Positions 434 to 23,573 of a stretch of DNA of 33,627 bases are shown here, piece by piece. The DNA comes from a virus. Taxonomy: Duplodnaviria > Caudoviricetes. The DNA is taken from positions 1 to 33,627 of the IMG/VR virus record IMGVR_UViG_3300037961_001367; one strand, 5' to 3'. The notes under the pieces were generated by a model, which made no database searches, was not told the origin of the DNA, and saw only the letters and a list, made by a program, of their open reading frames with translations. Both the position numbers and the translations under genes were made by a program. Each line of letters opens with the position of its first letter. Within the stretch, counting starts at the first letter, position 1.

Positions 434-3400
434 TTAATCAAATGTTTTGTCAAGCGTTCTTCCTAGCTCTTGCATTGAATCTCTCCACCAATAAAACCGT
501 GAAATACCAGTAGCACTTAAAATATCCTTCATGCCTTTTCCTGTATCTCCTGTCGCAAACTCTTGTAATGCAAGAAAATAATCTTGTGCAACAGAGGGTG
601 CAGAGCCTGTAATACCTACTAAAGCTCCAATTTGTGTATCTTGAAACTTAGGATTTATAAAACCAAGACCAATATCAGGCCCACCTAATGCATTAATCGT
701 ATGCATAGAAGTATAATAAATATCTGAATATAATGCCGCCATTCCAGATTGATCAAAAGCTCTCATAAATCTATCTTCATAATCCATTTTGTCCCAAGCC
801 CAAGAAGGAGTTTTCATTTTAACAGCAAAGTAACCCAATCCTATATACATCATTGCTGTTAATGCTCTATTTTTTGCATGACCAGAAACATAAGCAACAG
901 TTATTTTATTGAGCGCGGCAAAAGCGTATGTGTAAAATTGAAAAGGTGCAGAAAGAATACCACTTTCCATACGAGAATATCCTTTAACTCTTGGATCTTC
1001 TGGATAACCCCATTTCTTAGCAATACTGTGTTTTACATAAACTCTACCATCCATCATAATTGGTTTATCAGCAGGAGTAGACATCATAATAGTATTCATT
1101 ATACCGCCTGATAAAGCACCTCCATATCTTTCTTTAGCTATATCATTAGTCCATTCAGATACATCAGCATATCTAGTACCATTTCGTCCCATTTTATGAG
1201 GACTATCTGCAATTAATTTTGCTGTATCTGCATCAATATCATATTTAGCAAGCCATGCTATTTCCATTGGTTTAGCTGTACCATCTTTAACTTTAAGTGA
1301 ATAATCAATTATTGTATGACCCCTTGCCATAGAATCCCACCATTTAAGTATATGTGTAATTGGGCCTAATCCATTACCCATAAAAAATAAATGTTGTGCT
1401 TTATCCCAAAAACTAGGATTCAACATATTTGGTCTATCTGAACCAGACTCAATTCGCATATGGGCTTGACCCATTGCAATCTCAGCCATTTCTCCATTTA
1501 TCTGAGCATCTTTTTTAGACATGTTTCTTGCAAACGAATCGTCCATAAAGTCTAATAAACTATTTCTTATAGTTTTAATTTCATGATTAAGAAATAAAGC
1601 ACCTACTTCTGTGATTGCCGCAAGACCTGCTTGACCTAAATAACTAAATCGTGCCGCTATTTTAAGTGCATTAAATGTAACAAATGACATTTTGTCTGGA
1701 CTATCTATTACTCTACCTACAACCCTTTCATACATAACTGCCATATTCATTACAGCTTCATTTATTTCATCTTGAGTATTGCCATTAATAACCATACGAT
1801 CTGTAATTTCATTTATAAAATCTTCTTGGCTTGTATACCCAAACTTACGTTTCATTTCATACATAGGCATAGTTCTATGAGCATATGCTGTAGCTACCGC
1901 TTGTATATCTGTAACAATAAAATCTTTAACTAATTCATTTGGTATATCTATTTTTCTATGGCGCATATGTTTAGAAACATTAGCACCAAAAAAACCTTCT
2001 TCAAAATCCATAACATCTTTCATGTCCATAATTTCTTTATACACATCTTGCGCTCGTTGTTTGGATTCATCAACTGTAAGTAACTTTTCTGTTACATCTC
2101 TATTCTTACCTTTAAAATAAACATATTTTTTACCTATATAATACTGCTCTAGTATTTTAATAAATCTATCTTTGTTTCTTTTAATAGCTTCTCTATCCCA
2201 GTATCTTGGAAAAAAGTTTTCTAATGCACCTTTTGTTTCTCTTACTACTTTTATTTCATTATCTAAATTTTTAACTCTTCTATTTAAATCAGGTAATCTT
2301 TGGTTAACAAAATATGTTCGTGTATTTTTTTTCAATGGAACGCGAATAAATTTATTTTGTTTTTCATTAAAAACTAAAACACCATTTTCTAACATATCTT
2401 CTATTCTAGCTATATCAGATTTAATTATATCTTGTTTTGCTTGTAGTGGTCTTGAATCCCCTATAAGACCCTCATTAACTAATTTTGCTTCTTGTCGTTG
2501 GAAATGTTTTTTAATTAACTCTACAGCACTTTTTTCTCCTGCTGTTAAATCATCTGTATTATTTATAATATAATGATTTGTCATTCTTTTAGAAAAATCA
2601 GCAAAGGTTTCATCTGCTTTATTGAAACCACCTTTAGCTCCTGTATAATTTCTTACTGTTTTTTTAATTGTAAGTATAGCATCTGATGTTTGGTAATCAG
2701 AAATTTGCAATCTATCTTGTCGCCAAATATCTAACATATCTCTTTTTAGTGCTATAACTTCACCAACATGCTGACCTTTAGCAATAAAAACAGAACCACC
2801 TAAAGCTCTTCCTGCCATTTGAAATGTATAAGCCATGCCATAATCATTAGCTAATTTTAAAGCCATTTCTTTTACAGAATTAGGTATAACTTTACTTGAT
2901 ATAATTGTCTTCATGGGTGTAGGTATAGAATTATAAGCCCACTTTAAAACACCATCAGTAAACATATTTGATACATAATTAATATCAAACTCATATTTTT
3001 CTTTTAATCTTAATCTTTGTTCTATTTCTAATTGTTGTATTTTATCTTGAAACTCAGCAATGCGTGTATTGTTTTTTTGAATTTGATTGCCTAATTTATT
3101 TTCAGCCATTCTTCTAGCATTATTAAAATCTATTGTATGATTACCTGTTAATGGAAGTCTGTTTCCTTGTGGATCAGTTTGTGGCATAAATTTATTACCT
3201 TCAAATAAAGGTCTTAAATGCTCACGATTTTCCATTCTCATAAATTGTTTTTTGCCATTTACATCTATAAAACGAACACCAATATCATTAAATTCTTTAT
3301 CACCTCTCCATGCATTTGCTTCTAAAACTTTGCCTTTCATTTCATAAACTTTTTTTACTAAAGGTAATGCACGTGTTTCAATAAGGTTTTCTAAATCTTT

Positions 3401-4723
3401 TTGTAAAACAATATCAAAATTATCTTTATTAGGAAGTTTTCTAGCATTTATATAATCTCTTACAATTTGAGATTTTTCTTTTGCATTTAAACTATTTACT
3501 TCTTTTTTTAAACGATCTCTTAATTTATTTTTTAAACCTGCTATTTCTTGTAGTAATTCTACTTCTTTTTTTGATTTTCCTATTGCTAAAGTTCTTAGTA
3601 AATCATCAGTACTATTAGCAACAATAGTTTCATCTTTTAAATTATTAGGTGCTTGTCTTTTATTTTTTCTTTCCCAATTATTTATTATAGCTCTTTTTGC
3701 CGCTAAGAACCCTGTATCTCCAGCCGCTTTTAAACTAACCGCATCTGCTAATGCTAATTTTTTTATAGCTTTAAAATAACTTTCAAAATTTCCATATTGT
3801 ACTGGTAAACTTAATTCTCCACTTTTAAAACCATCAGGTTGTTTTTCTATTGTTTTAAAAAACTTTATTGCTTGTGATAATCTATCATTTAATTTTGTAG
3901 CACCTTTTATTTGTGCATCAAATTCTTCAATATCTATTTTTAATTGCTCACTTGTTTTTTGTTTTAAACCTAATTTATCTGGGTCTGTAATTCGTGTTTG
4001 TTTATGCATTTCAATTTGTTGAAAATCAGGATCATCATAAATTTTATTAGCTTCAATAACTTCTTTTTTTGCTTTTGTTTCTATTTGGTTACGCAATTTA
4101 GGCATTGCACCAAAAATTGCACCCATTGCACCACCAAACAAAATACCTGAACCAATAGAATAATAGGCCTCTTCAAAAGAAGCATCAGGATCAAATGGTA
4201 TTCTTAGGGCTTCTTGTCCTGCAACTAATACACCAACTCCTGCTCCTACTCTTGTTGCTGATCTTGCTACCCCAAGAGCAGGGCCACCAAAAGGCAACGC
4301 AATAAAATTAACAGGATCAAAAAATCCTGCAACAAACTGTGAAAATAACGGTGAGTCTGCAAGTATTTCTCTTCTTTGTTGTCCTTGTATAATAGTATTT
4401 TGTAAAAATTTCATATGCTTTTCATTATTAGCACCTGCTAAATATGAATGATATTCTGGCGCAAAACTTTCTATAGCTTTATTAAATGTTTCACTATTTA
4501 AATAATTTTGGTCTACACGTGTATATTCTGGATCACTATGAGCAACAGCCCAGTTTGCTAACGGTGAATATGTATATCCAAATGATGCAGATATTGTTTG
4601 TCCAAATGTAGGATTTTTTCTATAAACACCATTATCATAGTATGTCCTAATATGGTGTGGGTTACTACGCAAAGATGGAACGTAATCTCTATTAAAATCA
4701 AAACGAGGTAAATTTTCACTCAT
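434..4723 (-). CDS. Large internal virion/DNA ejection protein (T7 gp16-like position)
   Basis: 1429 aa, mostly helical, Gly/Ala-rich hydrophobic N-terminal segment, FFPRYWD and PFQFYTY motifs; third of three core genes after tail tubular B. Confidence 0.7.
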   Translation of the reverse strand: MSENLPRFDFNRDYVPSLRSNPHHIRTYYDNGVYRKNPTFGQTISASFGYTYSPLANWAVAHSDPEYTRVDQNYLNSETFNKAIESFAPEYHSYLAGANNEKHMKFLQNTIIQGQQRREILADSPLFSQFVAGFFDPVNFIALPFGGPALGVARSATRVGAGVGVLVAGQEALRIPFDPDASFEEAYYSIGSGILFGGAMGAIFGAMPKLRNQIETKAKKEVIEANKIYDDPDFQQIEMHKQTRITDPDKLGLKQKTSEQLKIDIEEFDAQIKGATKLNDRLSQAIKFFKTIEKQPDGFKSGELSLPVQYGNFESYFKAIKKLALADAVSLKAAGDTGFLAAKRAIINNWERKNKRQAPNNLKDETIVANSTDDLLRTLAIGKSKKEVELLQEIAGLKNKLRDRLKKEVNSLNAKEKSQIVRDYINARKLPNKDNFDIVLQKDLENLIETRALPLVKKVYEMKGKVLEANAWRGDKEFNDIGVRFIDVNGKKQFMRMENREHLRPLFEGNKFMPQTDPQGNRLPLTGNHTIDFNNARRMAENKLGNQIQKNNTRIAEFQDKIQQLEIEQRLRLKEKYEFDINYVSNMFTDGVLKWAYNSIPTPMKTIISSKVIPNSVKEMALKLANDYGMAYTFQMAGRALGGSVFIAKGQHVGEVIALKRDMLDIWRQDRLQISDYQTSDAILTIKKTVRNYTGAKGGFNKADETFADFSKRMTNHYIINNTDDLTAGEKSAVELIKKHFQRQEAKLVNEGLIGDSRPLQAKQDIIKSDIARIEDMLENGVLVFNEKQNKFIRVPLKKNTRTYFVNQRLPDLNRRVKNLDNEIKVVRETKGALENFFPRYWDREAIKRNKDRFIKILEQYYIGKKYVYFKGKNRDVTEKLLTVDESKQRAQDVYKEIMDMKDVMDFEEGFFGANVSKHMRHRKIDIPNELVKDFIVTDIQAVATAYAHRTMPMYEMKRKFGYTSQEDFINEITDRMVINGNTQDEINEAVMNMAVMYERVVGRVIDSPDKMSFVTFNALKIAARFSYLGQAGLAAITEVGALFLNHEIKTIRNSLLDFMDDSFARNMSKKDAQINGEMAEIAMGQAHMRIESGSDRPNMLNPSFWDKAQHLFFMGNGLGPITHILKWWDSMARGHTIIDYSLKVKDGTAKPMEIAWLAKYDIDADTAKLIADSPHKMGRNGTRYADVSEWTNDIAKERYGGALSGGIMNTIMMSTPADKPIMMDGRVYVKHSIAKKWGYPEDPRVKGYSRMESGILSAPFQFYTYAFAALNKITVAYVSGHAKNRALTAMMYIGLGYFAVKMKTPSWAWDKMDYEDRFMRAFDQSGMAALYSDIYYTSMHTINALGGPDIGLGFINPKFQDTQIGALVGITGSAPSVAQDYFLALQEFATGDTGKGMKDILSATGISRFYWWRDSMQELGRTLDKTFD

Positions 4724-11536: not shown

Positions 11537-12352
11537 TTATGAATTATTATCAAGGACTTCATAGATACCATTGTCATCAATAACAACAGCACCCATTGAC
11601 ATCATTGAGGTTGCGAGGTGTGCCACTCTTTCTGGCACATAGTTCAACTCTGTTGATACATCATTGTTTACACCAAGGCCAACAGCAGATGTATGATAAG
11701 CAATATTTTTACCTGCCGTGATAGCCGCAGTTGAAAAAATCTTAAAACCTAAAAACTCTTTCATTGTCATGCCACCTGCAAATGGTAGGTTCTGCTCTCC
11801 AACAAAATCAGATGAAGCAAATTCTGTTATATTAAACAAATCTGCGTATCCTTTTGGATGCATTGCCAAATATCTTTGCCCATCTTCTGGAATATTTGCA
11901 GTACCAAATGTTTCAAATAATGATAACAAATCTGCTTTTGCAAGTGCTGAACCTGTATCATGTATCTGAGTTGAATTAGCACCTGAGTCCATAGCTGTAT
12001 ATAGTAACTCGTCAGTCTTACGACCAAGAGCCGCCGCCGCAGATTGAGCAACAACTTGACGTTCATTAATATTTGTTTTCAATTCATCAAGTTTATCAAT
12101 ATATTCTGCCGCATAAAAGTCCTGCATTGTTACTTCAACAGTGGTATGCGCCAATTCCATTGGTGTCACTAAACCATTTCGTGACTTTGTAGACGCTGAA
12201 CCCTTTGCTATTTTTTGGAAACGAACTGTGTTTCCAGTTACATTACCAACAGTTCTTACAGTGTTGCGCAATTTAGACCCCATTCTCTGGTAAGCCATAT
12301 GCACATCTGATTCAAACTGTTTGATAAAAGCTGTGTCAATACTATTTGCCAT
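11537..12352 (-). CDS. Major capsid protein
   Basis: AFIKQFESDVHMAYQRMGSKLR, YIDKLDELK and AAAALGRKTD motifs; strong AAAAGGAG RBS; lies downstream of the scaffold gene. Confidence 0.9.
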   Translation of the reverse strand: MANSIDTAFIKQFESDVHMAYQRMGSKLRNTVRTVGNVTGNTVRFQKIAKGSASTKSRNGLVTPMELAHTTVEVTMQDFYAAEYIDKLDELKTNINERQVVAQSAAAALGRKTDELLYTAMDSGANSTQIHDTGSALAKADLLSLFETFGTANIPEDGQRYLAMHPKGYADLFNITEFASSDFVGEQNLPFAGGMTMKEFLGFKIFSTAAITAGKNIAYHTSAVGLGVNNDVSTELNYVPERVAHLATSMMSMGAVVIDDNGIYEVLDNNS

Positions 12353-12392
12353 AGTATATCTCCTTTTTACAGTTAAATTTTACTTCGTCTAT

Positions 12393-12441
12393 GCAGTTGT
12401 CTATTTAGGGTCATCTCATTGCAATTATCCAAAAGGGTTGC
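12393..12441 (-). promoter_or_regulatory. Tandem ACCC-N5/6-GAYAAYTGC motif in the MCP leader
   Basis: GCAACCCTTTTGGATAATTGC (12441-12421) and GACCCTAAATAGACAACTGC (12412-12393). Confidence 0.45.
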
Positions 12442-12993
12442 TCAATGATAAATAGGCTGTGACTTTGTATTATAAGACATACTTTCATCAACATTGCAAC
12501 GAAAAAACTGCAAAAACTCATGTTGATTGTGTAAATACTTTCTTTCTATGTCAAAAACAAACCCACACCACGCTAACCAACGCATAGTTTTTTTGTGAGT
12601 ATCAGGAACAAAATTAAAAATAACTTTGAAATTTCCTTGTAAAATATCAATAACTTCAGGACATTTTTTTAAAAATGATAAATAATGTTTATTTAATTCT
12701 TTAGTAGCAAGAAACCAAACTTTGCCTATATCTTCATTAATAGGAGAAACCCCCATCATAGCAATAGGTTTATTGTAGTCTATTAATGTATATGATGTTT
12801 TTTCTGATTCTATAAAGCTATCATAAATAGCTTCATAAGGTGCAACATCATACATTTCTAGTTCTAGTTTGTCTTCATCCCTCAAATTATCTGCAATATA
12901 CGGGATATCATCATAGGTAGCTTTTACTAAAAATAGTTTACCACTTTTGCAAAGGACATTTCTAGCCGTATAAGGTGGCAAAGCCATCATCAA
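12442..12993 (-). CDS. GNAT-like protein of the T7 gp13/DUF2833 type
   Basis: IADNLRDEDKLEL, IAMMGV...GKVWFLAT and FNFVPDTHKKTMRWLAWCGF motifs; start codon uncertain because it overlaps the scaffold end. Confidence 0.7.
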   Translation of the reverse strand: MMMALPPYTARNVLCKSGKLFLVKATYDDIPYIADNLRDEDKLELEMYDVAPYEAIYDSFIESEKTSYTLIDYNKPIAMMGVSPINEDIGKVWFLATKELNKHYLSFLKKCPEVIDILQGNFKVIFNFVPDTHKKTMRWLAWCGFVFDIERKYLHNQHEFLQFFRCNVDESMSYNTKSQPIYH

Positions 12994-17506: not shown

Positions 17507-17884
17507 CTAAGTTAGATCTATATTCACTTTTATATCACCTGCGTGTAAATGCATGTGCTTTTCTGTAGCCTTATACCCTGCTCTATCTAGTATATCTTTG
17601 CTAGCTTCTAGCTGTACATACTCACTCTTAGCTCCATTTGCTAGCTTCATTATCTTTGCTGTTGCTATTGTAGCATTAATTCCAATCGCATTACTCACTT
17701 GGCTCATCATATACTGTTGCACATGTGGTTGCTTTAAAGCCTTCATAGCTGACACTCTACCTGATTCACCTTTAGCATATCCTGCTTCTTCTGATGCTTG
17801 TTTTATGCTACAGCCTTTTGCTACTAACGTATCCACCAATGCTGTTTGCTTCTGGGTTAAATTGCTCTTAACTGGTACTGTCAT
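17507..17884 (-). CDS. terS: Terminase small subunit
   Basis: LTQKQTALV...SIKQASEEAGY HTH motif and QLEASKDILDRAGYK; upstream of terL. Confidence 0.8.
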   Translation of the reverse strand: MTVPVKSNLTQKQTALVDTLVAKGCSIKQASEEAGYAKGESGRVSAMKALKQPHVQQYMMSQVSNAIGINATIATAKIMKLANGAKSEYVQLEASKDILDRAGYKATEKHMHLHAGDIKVNIDLT

Positions 17885-17890
17885 GCGTCC

Positions 17891-17920
17891 ACTCTAAGCT
17901 AATCCAAAACACCATGTCAA
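17891..17920 (-). promoter_or_regulatory. Sigma70-type promoter for terS, apparently leaderless
   Basis: TTGACA (17920-17915), N18, TAGAGT (17896-17891); the ATG starts 7 nt after the -10 box. Confidence 0.55.
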
Positions 17921-17959: not shown

Positions 17960-17987
17960 TTGATAAAAGCTTGAAAGCTTTTATAAT
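17960..17987 (+). promoter_or_regulatory. Sigma70-type early promoter with a palindrome filling its spacer
   Basis: TTGATA, N16, TATAAT; ATAAAAGCTT-GA-AAGCTTTTAT at 17963-17984. Confidence 0.65.
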
Positions 17988-17993
17988 TCATAT

Positions 17994-18445
17994 CATCATC
18001 ATCAAACTCCCTAGCGATTATACCCACTGCGACACGCCCAACAATCCGCAGTACTTGTAAGCCCACTTGAAGTGGTCTTCCTGCGTGGATTGATGGGGGT
18101 CATTGTGGGTTATGGCTCAATAAACCCTATAGGCAAGGGTCGCAGGCAAGTGGGCGACCTCAACCAAAATAGAAGCAACAAGCCGTTCGCACCTGATAAA
18201 AGGTGCAGACCGTTTGTCGCATGCGATTTTGGTTGACCCATAGGGTTTATTAATCCTTGGATTACCATAGTTTGGATAAAATGTATTCAGACTTCTTCAT
18301 CAGATAGATGTAGTAGAAATAATCGTAGAAGTTGGTTACTTCTAAAGCAGTAAGAATCATCAGAGTTGGTTACTCTAAGAGTTGGAGAATGAACTTCAGA
18401 TCTAAAACAACCCTGCTAACAACAGCCCTACTACATCTGTCTACA
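17994..18445 (+). ncRNA. Putative large structured RNA (ncRNA or 5' leader) with three domains
   Basis: No ORF in the track. 122/240 G+C in 18001-18240 by hand count. Many nested helices, including 18119-18130/18240-18251, 18160-18170/18226-18236 and 18302-18316/18428-18442; G-U pairs favour the + strand. Confidence 0.7.
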
Positions 18446-18479
18446 ATATAAATATATTTCTAAATGAAAGGACTTCCAA

Positions 18480-19280
18480 ATGGAATATACAACTAAACAA
18501 ATAAATGATACAATAGAAACAATACTAGGTTTCACTGAAAAACGACCTACTGACAATGTGATCACTTGGCTCGTATATCAACAGTTCAGAGAGCTTTGTG
18601 GTGACTACCAACTCAAAGCTGAAACAAGTGAAGAGTATGACATCAAGACAGGGCAGATCCTCCCAGTAGAGTATGACCCTGTAGGTAAAAGGACATACTG
18701 GGGTGAACGCTTCTATACCCCAATCTTGAATGTACTGTCTCACTACAATGTGAATATACGAACAAAGGCAAATCAATCGCCAGTAGTTCACATGAAGACA
18801 GCGTTAGATCGTCAAAGTATTCAAGACAAAGACAGTACGGACAAGTACAAGTCAGTCAATACTTACACACATGAGGTGCAAGAGGACACTCAGGCAATCA
18901 TGGACGATAACAAGCTCCAACGAGAGAGGGCTGTCTTTGAAAACAACAGAGTGGGTTTTCCTAAGTTCATGGAGTGCGAATTGGCAATGCTAGCCTGTTT
19001 CAAATTGTTCTTCAATTATGAATACATGCACTGGACTAAGCAAAAGGAGCTTGAGGAACGTACAAAGAAATTGGCAGATGACAGACGTTCAGCTAATCAG
19101 TACGTAATGGCACTCCAAAAGAAGCTAACTGAAATCAGCAACGCGGCATCAAGCCTTAAGACTGCTGACGAAAAGAAAGCTAATAGTGCTGAGTTCACAA
19201 TGGTCGCCAAGATGCTAGAAGATGCTAAGGCAGACTCTGCTAAAATGGGTGAGGTAATTGATGCTGAAGTGGTATCGTAA
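18480..19280 (+). CDS. Orphan first early protein with a C-terminal coiled coil
   Basis: 266-aa ORF with RBS ATGAAAGGACT; no family recognised. Confidence 0.85.
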   Translation: MEYTTKQINDTIETILGFTEKRPTDNVITWLVYQQFRELCGDYQLKAETSEEYDIKTGQILPVEYDPVGKRTYWGERFYTPILNVLSHYNVNIRTKANQSPVVHMKTALDRQSIQDKDSTDKYKSVNTYTHEVQEDTQAIMDDNKLQRERAVFENNRVGFPKFMECELAMLACFKLFFNYEYMHWTKQKELEERTKKLADDRRSANQYVMALQKKLTEISNAASSLKTADEKKANSAEFTMVAKMLEDAKADSAKMGEVIDAEVVS

Positions 19281-19368
19281 CCTTAACTGGAAGGTAAAGG
19301 AGGTGATTGAGTTCACCTTCTTTATCCACCTAATAACAGCAATCTTGTTTATAGGTTGCCTACTCTAA
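19261..19368 (+). CDS. Putative 35-aa membrane peptide (MLKWYRNLNWKVKEVIEFTFFIHLITAILFIGCLL)
   Basis: Not in the ORF track. GAGGT lies 5 nt before the ATG; basic N-terminus followed by a roughly 20-aa hydrophobic helix; overlaps the previous stop. Confidence 0.5.
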   Translation: MLKWYRNLNWKVKEVIEFTFFIHLITAILFIGCLL

Positions 19369-19374
19369 TCCTCC

Positions 19375-19409
19375 GCACAACCTGGCTTACAGCTAGGTTG
19401 TGCTAATTT
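19375..19409 (+). terminator. 13-bp hairpin, probable terminator or processing stem
   Basis: GCACAACCTGGCT-TAC-AGCTAGGTTGTGC (one G-U pair) followed by TAATTT, a weak U-tract. Confidence 0.5.
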
Positions 19410-19494
19410 AGTACTCAGTTCTACACCATTGCACAGGAAGGGGGAATGCGCCCAGAAAAGAAATATTGCGACAGCAATTCAAACTCAATCTGCA

Positions 19495-19538
19495 TGAATA
19501 AAATTATTTATTCAATATTTTTTTTATGCTAATATAAT
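19495..19538 (+). promoter_or_regulatory. AT-rich palindrome and -10 box upstream of the DUF932 gene
   Basis: TGAATAAA-ATTA-TTTATTCA at 19495-19514; TATAAT at 19533-19538; the -35 box is weak. Confidence 0.4.
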
Positions 19539-19569
19539 TTACAAACACAAAACTAAAATGGAGATAACA

Positions 19570-20499
19570 ATGCCACTAGACAATACAATTGCAACTAAAC
19601 CTTTGCTAGATAAAATCTATGCCAAAGAATACCACAACCCAGAAGAATATACATTCCCAGTAAAATGGGCTGACTATTGTACATCAACTATAACTATAGA
19701 TGGTGTTGAACATACTGTAGAAAACAAAGAAAGCAGACAGTTAATTAATACAAGGGATATGTGTGTTGTTGGTGAACACAAATCTAAATATGTTGAACAG
19801 CTACATGAACCAATAGTAAACAAGGTTCTTGAAGTAGCTGAGAAACTACATATAGGTAAAGTCATACCCAACATTAGAGTCTATGAAAATGGACGTAAGC
19901 TAAGAGGAGAAGTGTATTTCCCAGAACAATCCTTTGATGTGCGTTCTGGTTTAAATGATACTGTTTGTTTCAAAATGGAGTTCTACAATTCATATTGTGG
20001 CAACTGGAAACTAGGGATCAAAGCCCTTGCTATGCGTTTGATATGCCTAAATGGAATGCTATATGGTCAAGCCATTACAGGTTCTGTTCTTAAACATACA
20101 GCAAACACAAACTATAACAGCTTACTTGAGAACACAAAACACTCATCAGAAATATTTATGAAGAGTGAAGATATCTACAACAAAATGTTACTATCAGGAC
20201 ATACAAAAACACAAGCTATGCAAATGTTTCGTAAATATTTATGTACTGATATTGTAAATGGTCAACGTAAAGTAAATGAAACACAAGTAACAATTCTAGC
20301 AAGACTATTACGAGACTATCGTAAAGAGCTTGGTCACAATGCTTGGGCTACATACAATGCTATGACTGAATGGGCAACACATACTCCTGCATCACAAGAT
20401 AAGAACGCATATCGTAATGAATCGCCAGTAGCTAGAATAAATGACAGTAACAAAAGACATGGAAAGGTAACAAATCTATTAAAGCAGTGGACTATATAA
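19570..20499 (+). CDS. DUF932-family phage/plasmid protein
   Basis: VGEHKSKY, FYNSYCG, MRLICLNG, KHT and NAWATYNAMTEWATH motifs; GGAG RBS favours the ATG at 19570. Confidence 0.8.
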   Translation: MPLDNTIATKPLLDKIYAKEYHNPEEYTFPVKWADYCTSTITIDGVEHTVENKESRQLINTRDMCVVGEHKSKYVEQLHEPIVNKVLEVAEKLHIGKVIPNIRVYENGRKLRGEVYFPEQSFDVRSGLNDTVCFKMEFYNSYCGNWKLGIKALAMRLICLNGMLYGQAITGSVLKHTANTNYNSLLENTKHSSEIFMKSEDIYNKMLLSGHTKTQAMQMFRKYLCTDIVNGQRKVNETQVTILARLLRDYRKELGHNAWATYNAMTEWATHTPASQDKNAYRNESPVARINDSNKRHGKVTNLLKQWTI

Positions 20500-22020: not shown

Positions 22021-22522
22021 TGTAATAAAATTTGAGTCAAAAGCTATGGTACACATACTGCTTGCAGAAAAATGGGAAGAACCTTTGGAAACTCTTTCAG
22101 AGATTTATTCTGCTTTAGGTGCAACAGATGGTTGCAGTATAGAAAAAGGCAGATATGTTGCACAGTTTACGTTCAAAGCTGATTCCCTTGAGTCAGCAAG
22201 AAAAGCACTTGATAAGTTAGATTGGTATATGACACCTTTACCTAAACAAGAAATAAAAGATAGATTGATAGAATTAAGACATACAAAAAGATGGGATAAT
22301 GACCAAGCAAAAGAAGAATCTAAACAAGCTTGCATTGCAGTAGTCTTAAGAAATCTAGCTTTGTACCCTGCTGATTTGGCAACACTGTCACTAAATACAG
22401 TTGAGAAAGTATGTATGTTTTTCCCACAATTAGTAGGCTTTGAAAGAAGTGTAAGTAATTATTTTCAAGAACGAAAATTTATCAGAAAGCTAATAATAAA
22501 AGAGCTTGACAGATTGCAATAA
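22013..22522 (+). CDS. Hypothetical replication-associated protein, possibly a helicase loader/inhibitor
   Basis: The C-terminal LALYPADL...FFPQL pattern resembles phage loader-type proteins; position in the replication module. Confidence 0.4.
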   Translation: MNDVIKFESKAMVHILLAEKWEEPLETLSEIYSALGATDGCSIEKGRYVAQFTFKADSLESARKALDKLDWYMTPLPKQEIKDRLIELRHTKRWDNDQAKEESKQACIAVVLRNLALYPADLATLSLNTVEKVCMFFPQLVGFERSVSNYFQERKFIRKLIIKELDRLQ

Positions 22523-22534
22523 TGCAATTAGTCT
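22506..22534 (+). promoter_or_regulatory. Sigma70-type promoter for the recombination operon, with a palindrome in the spacer
   Basis: TTGACA, N17, TAGTCT; ATTGCA-ATAA-TGCAAT at 22513-22528. Confidence 0.6.
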
Positions 22535-22540
22535 CAACCT

Positions 22541-22603
22541 GTCAGAACATATGACTTTTACCATTGCCTGTGTAAAAAAAAATATTTCCCCATGTGTTCT
22601 GAC
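22541..22603 (+). promoter_or_regulatory. Structured 5' leader hairpin
   Basis: GTCAGAACATATG pairs with CATGTGTTCTGAC (13 bp, one U-G), starting at the predicted TSS. Confidence 0.55.
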
Positions 22604-22625
22604 ACCAAACATGAAAGGACAAATC

Positions 22626-23573
22626 ATGACAGTAGTACTTACTGCGGCAGAGAAAGACCGCAACAAATATATTGGTGGCAGTGATGTTGCTAAAATTATG
22701 AGTGGAGATTGGTATGATCTCTGGTTAGAAAAGACTGGGCAAGTAAAACACCCAGACTTATCAGATGTATTCCAGGTGCAACTAGGTACAGTAACAGAAG
22801 CATTTAATATTGAATGGTTCTATAAAAATTATCTTACATGTGCAAAACAGAACAAGATAGAAGGGATAAACCCAAGACAATTATTTGGTAAAAAAGATGA
22901 AAGGTTTATGCGTGGCGAATTTGGTAAAAAAGATGAAAGGTTTATGCGTGGCAATCTTGATGATGTATGTATAGATGGTTCAGGTAGGATATGTGCAATA
23001 GAAGCTAAACATACAAGTGCTTTGGGTATGAGATTCAAGAATATGGATGAGGCAATAGAAGAGTACATGCCTCAGATGCAATTCTATCTGTACCTTCTAC
23101 ACCAAAATTTTTCAACTGATGATGACTACTACACAGTAGGTGGATGCTACTTCCCTATTATCTTTGGCAACGTATGGCATTGTGTAAAGGTAAGTAGTTA
23201 TGCAGGGTATCAAATAGATATGGTAGATGCCATCCATAGATTTAAGAAACATGTAGATAAGTTTGACCCAAAGTGTCCAGAAGCAACAGCACCACCAAAA
23301 TATAAAACAAAACAAACTGATGTAGATATAGATAAGATACCTGTAAATGGTGGTATTAAAGTTGATATGTCACAAAGCAATTCATTTATTAATGATGCAA
23401 ATAACTATATCAAAACAAAAAACGAATCAGACAAAACACAAAGCAAACTAAAAGAAACAAGAAAGTTTTTATTAGAACATGTACCTGATAATGCAAGAGA
23501 AGTTTATAGTCCGCTTCTTAATATCAAGCGTGATACTAAAGGTACACTAAGAGTAAATATAAAAGGAGAATAA
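22626..23573 (+). CDS. YqaJ-like viral recombinase / lambda-type exonuclease
   Basis: RNKYIGGSD, GTVTE, GNLDD, IEAK and QMQFY motifs; RBS ATGAAAGGAC favours the ATG at 22626. Confidence 0.9.
   Translation: MTVVLTAAEKDRNKYIGGSDVAKIMSGDWYDLWLEKTGQVKHPDLSDVFQVQLGTVTEAFNIEWFYKNYLTCAKQNKIEGINPRQLFGKKDERFMRGEFGKKDERFMRGNLDDVCIDGSGRICAIEAKHTSALGMRFKNMDEAIEEYMPQMQFYLYLLHQNFSTDDDYYTVGGCYFPIIFGNVWHCVKVSSYAGYQIDMVDAIHRFKKHVDKFDPKCPEATAPPKYKTKQTDVDIDKIPVNGGIKVDMSQSNSFINDANNYIKTKNESDKTQSKLKETRKFLLEHVPDNAREVYSPLLNIKRDTKGTLRVNIKGE
22883..22952 (+). repeat. In-frame tandem duplication with a 36-nt period
   Basis: ATTTGGTAAAAAAGATGAAAGGTTTATGCGTGGC at 22883-22916 and 22919-22952. Confidence 0.97.

Follow-up and report, generated by a model that had tools for sequence, protein, structure and literature searches.

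A folded element in the gap right of terS in a marine podovirus: a candidate template-strand promoter or priming site

What does the strongly folding DNA that separates the small terminase gene of a marine phage from its first early gene do, and on which strand does it act? The window, i.e., the whole stretch of DNA analyzed here (33,627 nucleotides), is a complete circular genome of 33.6 kb with its first bases repeated at its end. Pfam and PHROG profile scans recovered the complete gene set of a T7-type podovirus, a marine tailed phage, in which no transfer (conjugation) gene was recognized. As an earlier note on this DNA had observed, no polymerase, primase or integrase was recognized among the proteins scanned, and the same was true of helicases. 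Among cultured phages, the nearest in terL is Pelagibacter phage EXVC031P Hodr (OQ414635.1), whose terL is 64.5% identical.

The folded element sits in a divergent gap. Its left edge is formed by the terminase small subunit gene, terS (17507..17884, minus strand; PHROG 2538, E 5e-11), and the first early gene starts at 18480 on the plus strand. A promoter-like site for terS, a sequence motif with TTGACA at 17920-17915, lies at 17891..17920 on the minus strand, and in 44 of 46 relatives TGTCAA stands 22 to 87 nt ahead of terS. Downstream of the first early gene, profile matches identify a DUF932 gene (19558..20499, plus strand), a RusA-like resolvase and a YqaJ/RecE-like exonuclease (22506..23573, plus strand). 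The conserved extended −10 motif TGCTAATAT at 19527..19535 on the plus strand (TGCTAAACT in locus L002) is likely the ordinary double-strand promoter of the DUF932 operon.

Each helix that was checked lies where it had been listed for this gap, including the 12-bp helix (18119-18130/18240-18251), the 11-bp helix (18160-18170/18226-18236), the ACCCAC/GTGGGT pairing and the 15-bp stem of the third domain, D3, the last with one G.T pair. The GC content is indeed raised (0.50 to 0.51 versus 0.34 for the genome). The RNA fold of 17995-18460 reaches a shuffle z score of −8.2 on the plus strand and −7.8 on the minus strand, and the windows starting at 18001 and 18121 are the two strongest-folding of 279 genome windows on both strands. 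For the whole leader, the minus strand, i.e., the template strand of the first early gene, folds better than the plus strand (−206 versus −189 with RNA parameters and −102.5 versus −88.6 with DNA parameters), and it does so in the leaders of the window and of its relatives L001 and L002 with RNA and DNA parameters alike. The earlier argument that G-U pairs work on the plus strand applies only to D3, a hairpin at 18269-18293 and the terminator, and not to the leader as a whole. A helix between TCAAACT and AGTTTGG is likewise present, with a terminal G.T, but we do not accept it as a basal stem closing D1 and D2, as this stem (the 17990s with 18270-88) appears in short folds and retains only about 0 to 3 expected pairs in full-length folds.

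On the minus strand, the predicted template-strand fold consists of a rod, D1 (18011..18117), and a three-way rod, D2 (18114..18256), which comprises the 12-bp and 11-bp helices and two hairpins. The distal arm of D1 carries TTGTTG-N16-TATAAT (18017..18044, minus strand), with TACAAT in place of the hexamer in L001 and L002. In the predicted minus-strand fold, the first T of TATAAT closes the basal helix and the remainder is largely unpaired, so that the hexamer lies at a helix end; by this model, it is a candidate pre-melted −10 box. The 10-bp hairpin at 18269..18293, predicted on the plus strand only and containing two G.T pairs there, is a candidate mRNA-leader hairpin. To the left lie a palindrome, P1 (17941..17957), that is terminator-like on the minus strand and unchanged in L001 and L002, and a second palindrome with A/T flanks, P2 (17964..17983), that overlaps the promoter proposed previously. 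Fold and comparison together define D3 (18300..18450, plus strand) as an optional 151-nt module that has the 15-bp stem at its ends and two hairpins with the same TGGTT loop. The ends of D3 are terminal inverted repeats, and the module may have been gained or may have been lost through a hairpin-driven event. No Rfam match was found anywhere in the window at E values up to 1 (Rfam 15, including the IMES motifs and ribozymes), and a blastn search of the folded region against 50,697 phage records gave no match.

The window's own clade (three IMG/VR contigs and two metagenome contigs) was too small for covariation. L001 and L002 encode an ORF that is 89 to 90% identical to the window's first early gene product, ORF266. 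The plus-strand promoter TTGATA-N16-TATAAT is present in the window (11 of 12 positions match) but is not conserved: L001 and L002 have 7 extra spacer bases and TATATT in this region, and P2 is kept there with a longer loop. D3 (18300-18450) is absent from both loci, so although the reported fold of about 450 nt is real in the window, there is no conserved 450-nt RNA of three domains. Two of the base changes in L001 and L002 break pairs in D1 and D2. In sequencing run X8, D1 and one D2 hairpin are kept, the D2 5′ arm has 8 changes and the 3′ half of D2 is replaced by 110 other bases. D3 is internally shortened in X8 and X12, where it has one further plus-strand G.U. Runs X1 to X5, from which the window DNA may itself derive, and X7, which is identical to it, were left out as support.

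To obtain a wider sample, we searched by terS and confirmed 591 relatives in 27 of the 64 parts of IMG/VR (about 1,500 estimated), the best 80 of which were analyzed. Counting the window and Hodr, 73 upstream regions exceeded 300 nt; a first gene could be called in 66 of them, the other 7 were dropped, and the 66 reduced to 46 nonredundant leaders: 33 with a first gene of 128 to 166 aa and 13 others, including the window's clade. Little sequence is common between clusters, and most leaders contain a folded block. With DNA parameters, 41 of the 46 leaders fold better as the template strand, and with RNA parameters 39 do; this strand is also favored in all 17 hand-grouped clusters of short-gene loci, compared with only 12 of 33 first-gene coding sequences used as a control. 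The window element has no sequence similarity to the rods of these relatives; what links them is position and strand bias. One long-gene relative, L005, has an 853-nt leader (3150-4000) of several tandem hairpins, two of them near-identical repeated units, with no strand bias.

The mismatches within the stems lean the same way. When strand-neutral Watson-Crick skeletons were compared across the 33 short-gene loci, 80 mismatches were G.T on the template strand and 17 on the coding strand, and a looser count gave 189 versus 44 (4.3-fold). Shuffled sequences gave 222 versus 124 (1.8-fold) and coding controls gave 74 versus 66, indicating that composition accounts for part of the G.T bias and not for all of it. 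Informative mismatches in 12 long-gene leaders were also distributed 35 to 10 toward the template strand; as the loci are related, none of these counts are independent. The window locus itself has only 2 versus 1 (template versus coding strand). With four relatives aligned together, two-sided changes occur at 35 of 74 pairs, and RNAalifold run on nine GC-rich leaders returned 23 pairs from a poor alignment. The G.T bias alone cannot separate DNA from RNA.

Each first gene was then aligned to its own upstream DNA, taken as the reverse complement. A significant inverted gene match was found in 32 of the 46 loci, usually extending about 60 to 70 nt into the gene, and in seven loci (L008, L018, L020, L037, L048, Hodr and L046) the copy covers the whole gene. 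In the five clean whole-gene cases (the first five named), the leader of 770 to 870 nt is a noncoding inverted copy, about 80% alike, that spans the gene to +455 to +482, just past the stop; in L008, for instance, the copy lies upstream of a first gene at 2718-3131. The copy has no open frame and its longest perfect run is 17 bp, and it tracks its own gene (e.g., a score of 286 versus 24 to 30 against the genes of four relatives). In Hodr (L086), the fold-back spans about 11780-12855. The arms of Hodr and L046 overlap the terS coding region by some 255 nt and share its strand, with scores of 242 and 212 versus shuffle maxima of 26 and 27, albeit with many gaps. Two coding sequences are thus predicted to be mutually complementary in these phages. 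No inverted copy of ORF266 or of the DUF932 gene was found in the window, and neither the window locus nor its clade has an arm over the ribosome site or gene.

The substitutions between arm and gene show the same asymmetry: transitions leave G.T on the template strand in 356 cases and on the coding strand in 44, and 30 of the 32 loci lean to the template side (Hodr itself has 5 versus 5). Counted on the template strand, the mismatches of the five clean cases are G.T (157), G.A (117), T.T (61), G.G (43), C.T (33), A.A (23), A.C (19) and C.C (6), a ranking that parallels how stable these mismatches are in DNA. Because cytosine deamination alone does not explain the excess of G.A and G.G, we infer selection for a duplex on the template strand. 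A DGR template repeat was rejected as the source of the copy, which is inverted and whose changes hit A, C and T; moreover, no reverse transcriptase was recognized in profile scans of the window. A whole-gene inverted copy that tracks its gene is strange under any mechanism, and its presence in relatives, including the cultured SAR11 phage Hodr, is a more surprising result than the window locus itself.

Short hairpin loops offer some discrimination between DNA and RNA. PMC13037366 describes GCGNAGC and GCGNNAGC as DNA mini-hairpins found at the G4 and ssiA priming sites and at N4 promoters and reports that the RNA form of a tetraloop mini-hairpin melts at a much lower temperature than the DNA form. 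Among the relatives, c[GNA]g triloops occur 10 times on the minus strand and once on the plus strand (shuffle mean, 1.0), and GCGAAGC occurs 11 times on the template strand and never on the coding strand. Of the RNA-type loops, cUUCGg is absent from both strands and GNRA is even (3 on the minus strand versus 4 on the plus strand). Some loops lean the opposite way, namely, GCGCAAG (11 on the plus strand versus 2 on the minus strand), cG(N1-3)Ag (5 versus 0 for the plus strand in 13 long-gene leaders) and GCGNNAGC (9 versus 5 loci, plus over minus). The window leader has no c[GNA]g loop.

Because the template strand gives the best fold and many relatives carry an inverted gene copy, we tentatively propose, at a probability of roughly 0.45, that 18011-18256 works as folded single-stranded DNA (ssDNA) of the template strand, serving host RNA polymerase as a promoter or priming site like the Frpo elements of plasmid F. 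The template strand would become single stranded through 5′-to-3′ resection of a genome end near terS, by a host nuclease or the phage YqaJ protein, or else through strand-displacement replication; the YqaJ/RecE-like exonuclease is a candidate source on this model. Contig ends within 300 nt upstream of terS number 12 in the best 80 of the 591 relatives versus about 5 expected, with 3 just downstream, an excess that fits a genome end there and that could also be an assembly effect. Host RNA polymerase would use the site only while the template strand is unpaired, with the distal arm serving as the nontemplate strand, for which the window locus may offer TATAAT/TACAAT at the helix end. The RNA product would be the first-gene mRNA, possibly doubling as a primer for second-strand synthesis. 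In loci whose copy spans the gene, the fold would restore a transcription unit in duplex form, and any RNA read through from double-stranded DNA (dsDNA) would bury its own ribosome site.

Promoter boxes reconstituted in this manner are unproven, as −10-like hexamers show no excess over mirrored controls: across the 33 relatives, they occur in 16 distal arms and 15 coding arms, with 21 and 19 in the respective controls. Matches at five of six positions number 7 in the distal arm and 2 in the coding arm. Candidate −35/−10-like pairs are present in some clades with no family-wide excess, and no universal −35/−10 position was found in the rods.

Comparison with known elements places the candidate near, and outside, an established group. 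On plasmids, leading genes are driven by stem-loops of the transferred template strand that are active only as ssDNA and may also prime second-strand synthesis; PMC9849209, PMC11541004 and PMC12672017 assign the plasmid F elements Frpo1/Frpo2 and the ssi1-3 elements of ColIb-P9/pESBL to class 1, klcA and ardA to class 2 and the M.EcoGIX ssDNA promoters to class 3 (see also bioRxiv 10.64898/2026.01.09.698686). The phage elements resemble Frpo/ssi in being long imperfect stem-loops directly upstream of the first-expressed gene with a favored template-strand fold, a feature that is strong in the family and thin at the window locus. When the same mismatch test was applied to plasmid F as a positive control, it gave 5 versus 0 for Frpo1 and 3 versus 0 for Frpo2, template over coding strand. 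The gene order is also similar: in F, Frpo1 is followed by ygeA and a DUF932 gene, and the phage element is followed by the first gene and then DUF932 or ArdC (ArdC genes follow in L008 and Hodr). In contrast to the plasmids, the phage carriers are tailed dsDNA phages in which no conjugation genes were seen, and in relatives the phage stems reach the gene start or cover the whole gene, which the F hairpins do not within the 20 coding bases examined. A blastn search of two relatives' rods against 72,556 plasmids found no match. With no homology, no conjugative context and unproven boxes, the element appears Frpo-like by anatomy and not a member of a class. These plasmid ssDNA promoter papers cite the work of Masai and Arai from 1997.

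Other systems are more distant. Like the G4/ssiA priming sites and the N4 promoters, the relatives carry loops of the GCGAAGC/CCGAAGG type on a single strand, but those sites are short hairpins read by a primase or phage polymerase, whereas the phage fold-backs are 250 to 1,200 nt long, neither enzyme was found in the window and the window locus lacks such a loop. Hodr shares the layout of terS, fold-back, first gene, ArdC and YqaJ; it differs in having a 147-aa first gene and a whole-gene fold-back that runs into terS, in an interval that carries no annotation. Sense-strand RNA is the active form of the ColE1 RNAII primer and of mRNAs repressed by fold-back, such as hok. Likeness to them extends to a structured nucleic acid near a possible origin and, in relatives, to a ribosome site buried by a distant arm, but the mismatch pattern here favors the opposite strand and Rfam gave no match. 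The earlier suggestion of a priming site or origin comes close to our preferred reading, as folded template-strand DNA and not as RNA of the ColE1 RNAII type.

To our knowledge, ssDNA promoters have so far been demonstrated on conjugative plasmids, whose DNA arrives as a single strand. We know of no single-stranded stage in these phages, which counts against the ssDNA reading. At the window locus, the lack of a gene-covering arm and of a c[GNA]g loop, the few informative mismatches and the dissimilarity to the family rods also count against it. If the reading is true, double-stranded marine phages expose and use ssDNA, which would suggest how phages with no recognizable primase or polymerase start transcription and replication. 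We regard as rather doubtful, though conceivable, the wider proposal of an abundant marine dsDNA podovirus family with a programmed single-stranded stage at the leading end of the genome, in which the template strand would fold on a noncoding inverted copy that evolves along with the first gene, rebuild the complete transcription unit as a duplex and prime replication without a phage primase, the window representing a promoter-only form. The fold-back is directly testable, since the cultured SAR11 phage Hodr carries it. No published description of it was found in the titles and abstract openings of open-license PMC articles and bioRxiv preprints.

The functional fold might instead be that of a minus-strand RNA. 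Such a leftward transcript, running antisense to the first gene or heading the terS late operon as a long leader, would fold back and gate early or late expression. G.U pairs on the minus strand fit such an RNA equally well, the window's TTGTTG-N16-TATAAT reads leftward in dsDNA, P1 is terminator-like on the minus strand, and the copy in Hodr and L046 overlaps the terS coding region on the terS strand. We consider this explanation unlikely nonetheless: DNA-type triloops are enriched and RNA-type loops are not, and none of the 33 loci has a leftward sigma70-like site at +15 to +135 of the first gene.

A DNA structure with no transcriptional role is improbable. It could be a single-strand origin or primosome site, a self-priming 3′ hairpin at the genome end, or a packaging or N4-type cruciform, and the failure to find a primase, helicase or polymerase speaks for it, together with the surplus of contig ends near terS. 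So does a strand excess of TAGCG (15 on the minus strand versus 4 on the plus strand), which presumably resembles the CS-6 box of ssoA. Rolling-circle single-strand origins of the ssoA type have CS-6 and RSB boxes and accompany a Rep nickase; here, the ssoA-type boxes TAGCG[AT] and TTTATGC occur at 7 versus 3 and 1 versus 2 loci, respectively, and no Rep was recognized in the profile scans of the window. On the opposing side are two virion proteins of 1,429 and 946 aa, for which no Pfam match was found, and the course of the stems, which keep to the ribosome site and the start of the gene and in seven loci run along all of it to shortly beyond the stop; this course points to expression.

Similarly improbable as the main function is a plus-strand mRNA leader whose pairing to its own ribosome site and coding region is undone, by opening or by cleavage of the RNase III type, to time translation of the first gene. 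In relatives, the stem does cover the ribosome site and start codon, and in the window plus-strand G.U pairs occur in D3, in the hairpin at 18269-18293 and in the terminator, to which X8 and X12 add their one in D3. However, the long stems on the plus strand hold A.C and C.U eightfold more often than G.U, and the ribosome site is not strongly buried in the window's clade (paired 0.46 to 0.73 in L003/L001). An mRNA-leader effect on the plus strand may exist alongside the ssDNA reading as a secondary one.

Very improbable is the idea favored in the earlier note, a plus-strand noncoding RNA of about 450 nt that is transcribed from TTGATA-N16-TATAAT and bound by ORF266. The strong plus-strand fold, the empty Rfam search and the near-consensus promoter of the window genome agree with it, but neither the promoter nor D3 is conserved in kin whose ORF is 89 to 90% identical, L005 combines a homologous ORF with an unrelated leader, and the family-wide asymmetry is toward the minus strand. 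A single RNA run was among the 20 runs holding the stretch, available as contigs only; it yielded one identical 181-nt contig inside ORF266 (19026-19206) and none over the folded structure, which, for one small run, is weak evidence either way. Nothing was found for the lysis or persistence switch that had also been suggested.

On the preferred ssDNA reading, ORF266 would be regulated cargo and not a binding partner, and D3 would be an optional leader module. The predicted ORF (18480..19280, plus strand) encodes 266 aa, mostly helical. It had been called an orphan, and it does lack a named family (nothing named in Pfam, PHROGs or the ESM Atlas; no tblastn match in 50,697 phage records), but it has about six or seven close relatives, six of them at 58 to 97% identity, and L005 carries a homolog of 276 aa in the same position (E 5e-16). 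Its structure model is poor (pLDDT 52). From its position among DUF932 and ArdC genes, ORF266 would most likely be an establishment or antidefense factor.

The short first genes of the relatives (128 to 166 aa; 30 aligned) form an unnamed two-helix hairpin family, as modeled by AlphaFold (pLDDT 81), with nothing named in Pfam, PHROGs or the ESM Atlas, no match to the model at E values up to 0.001 in PDB or BFVD and no tblastn match of one member among plasmids. Comparison of ORF266 with this family was borderline (E 0.011; probability 3.9%). In the longer first genes of other clades, the second helix ends in a similar aromatic-G-aromatic pattern, a weak link to the short family.

The peptide reported after ORF266 was borne out: a conserved 35-aa peptide with a hydrophobic C-terminal half (19261..19368, plus strand) has a frame that stays open in all three close loci that reach it (L001, L002 and L085; six base changes each). 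The terminal hairpin is also real; with 13 bp at 19375..19403 on the plus strand and a T-rich run following it in L001 and L002, this terminator-like hairpin is likely the terminator of the ORF266 unit. Small hydrophobic peptides just after the first gene were observed in L006, L008, L020, L026 and L079 as well as in the window; exclusion factors are a possible role. Farther downstream, the start of the YqaJ gene (22441-22680) is the third-strongest folding window on the plus strand (z, −3.0), and the YqaJ protein (22506-23573) contains a tandemly duplicated stretch of about 12 residues near positions 80 to 100.
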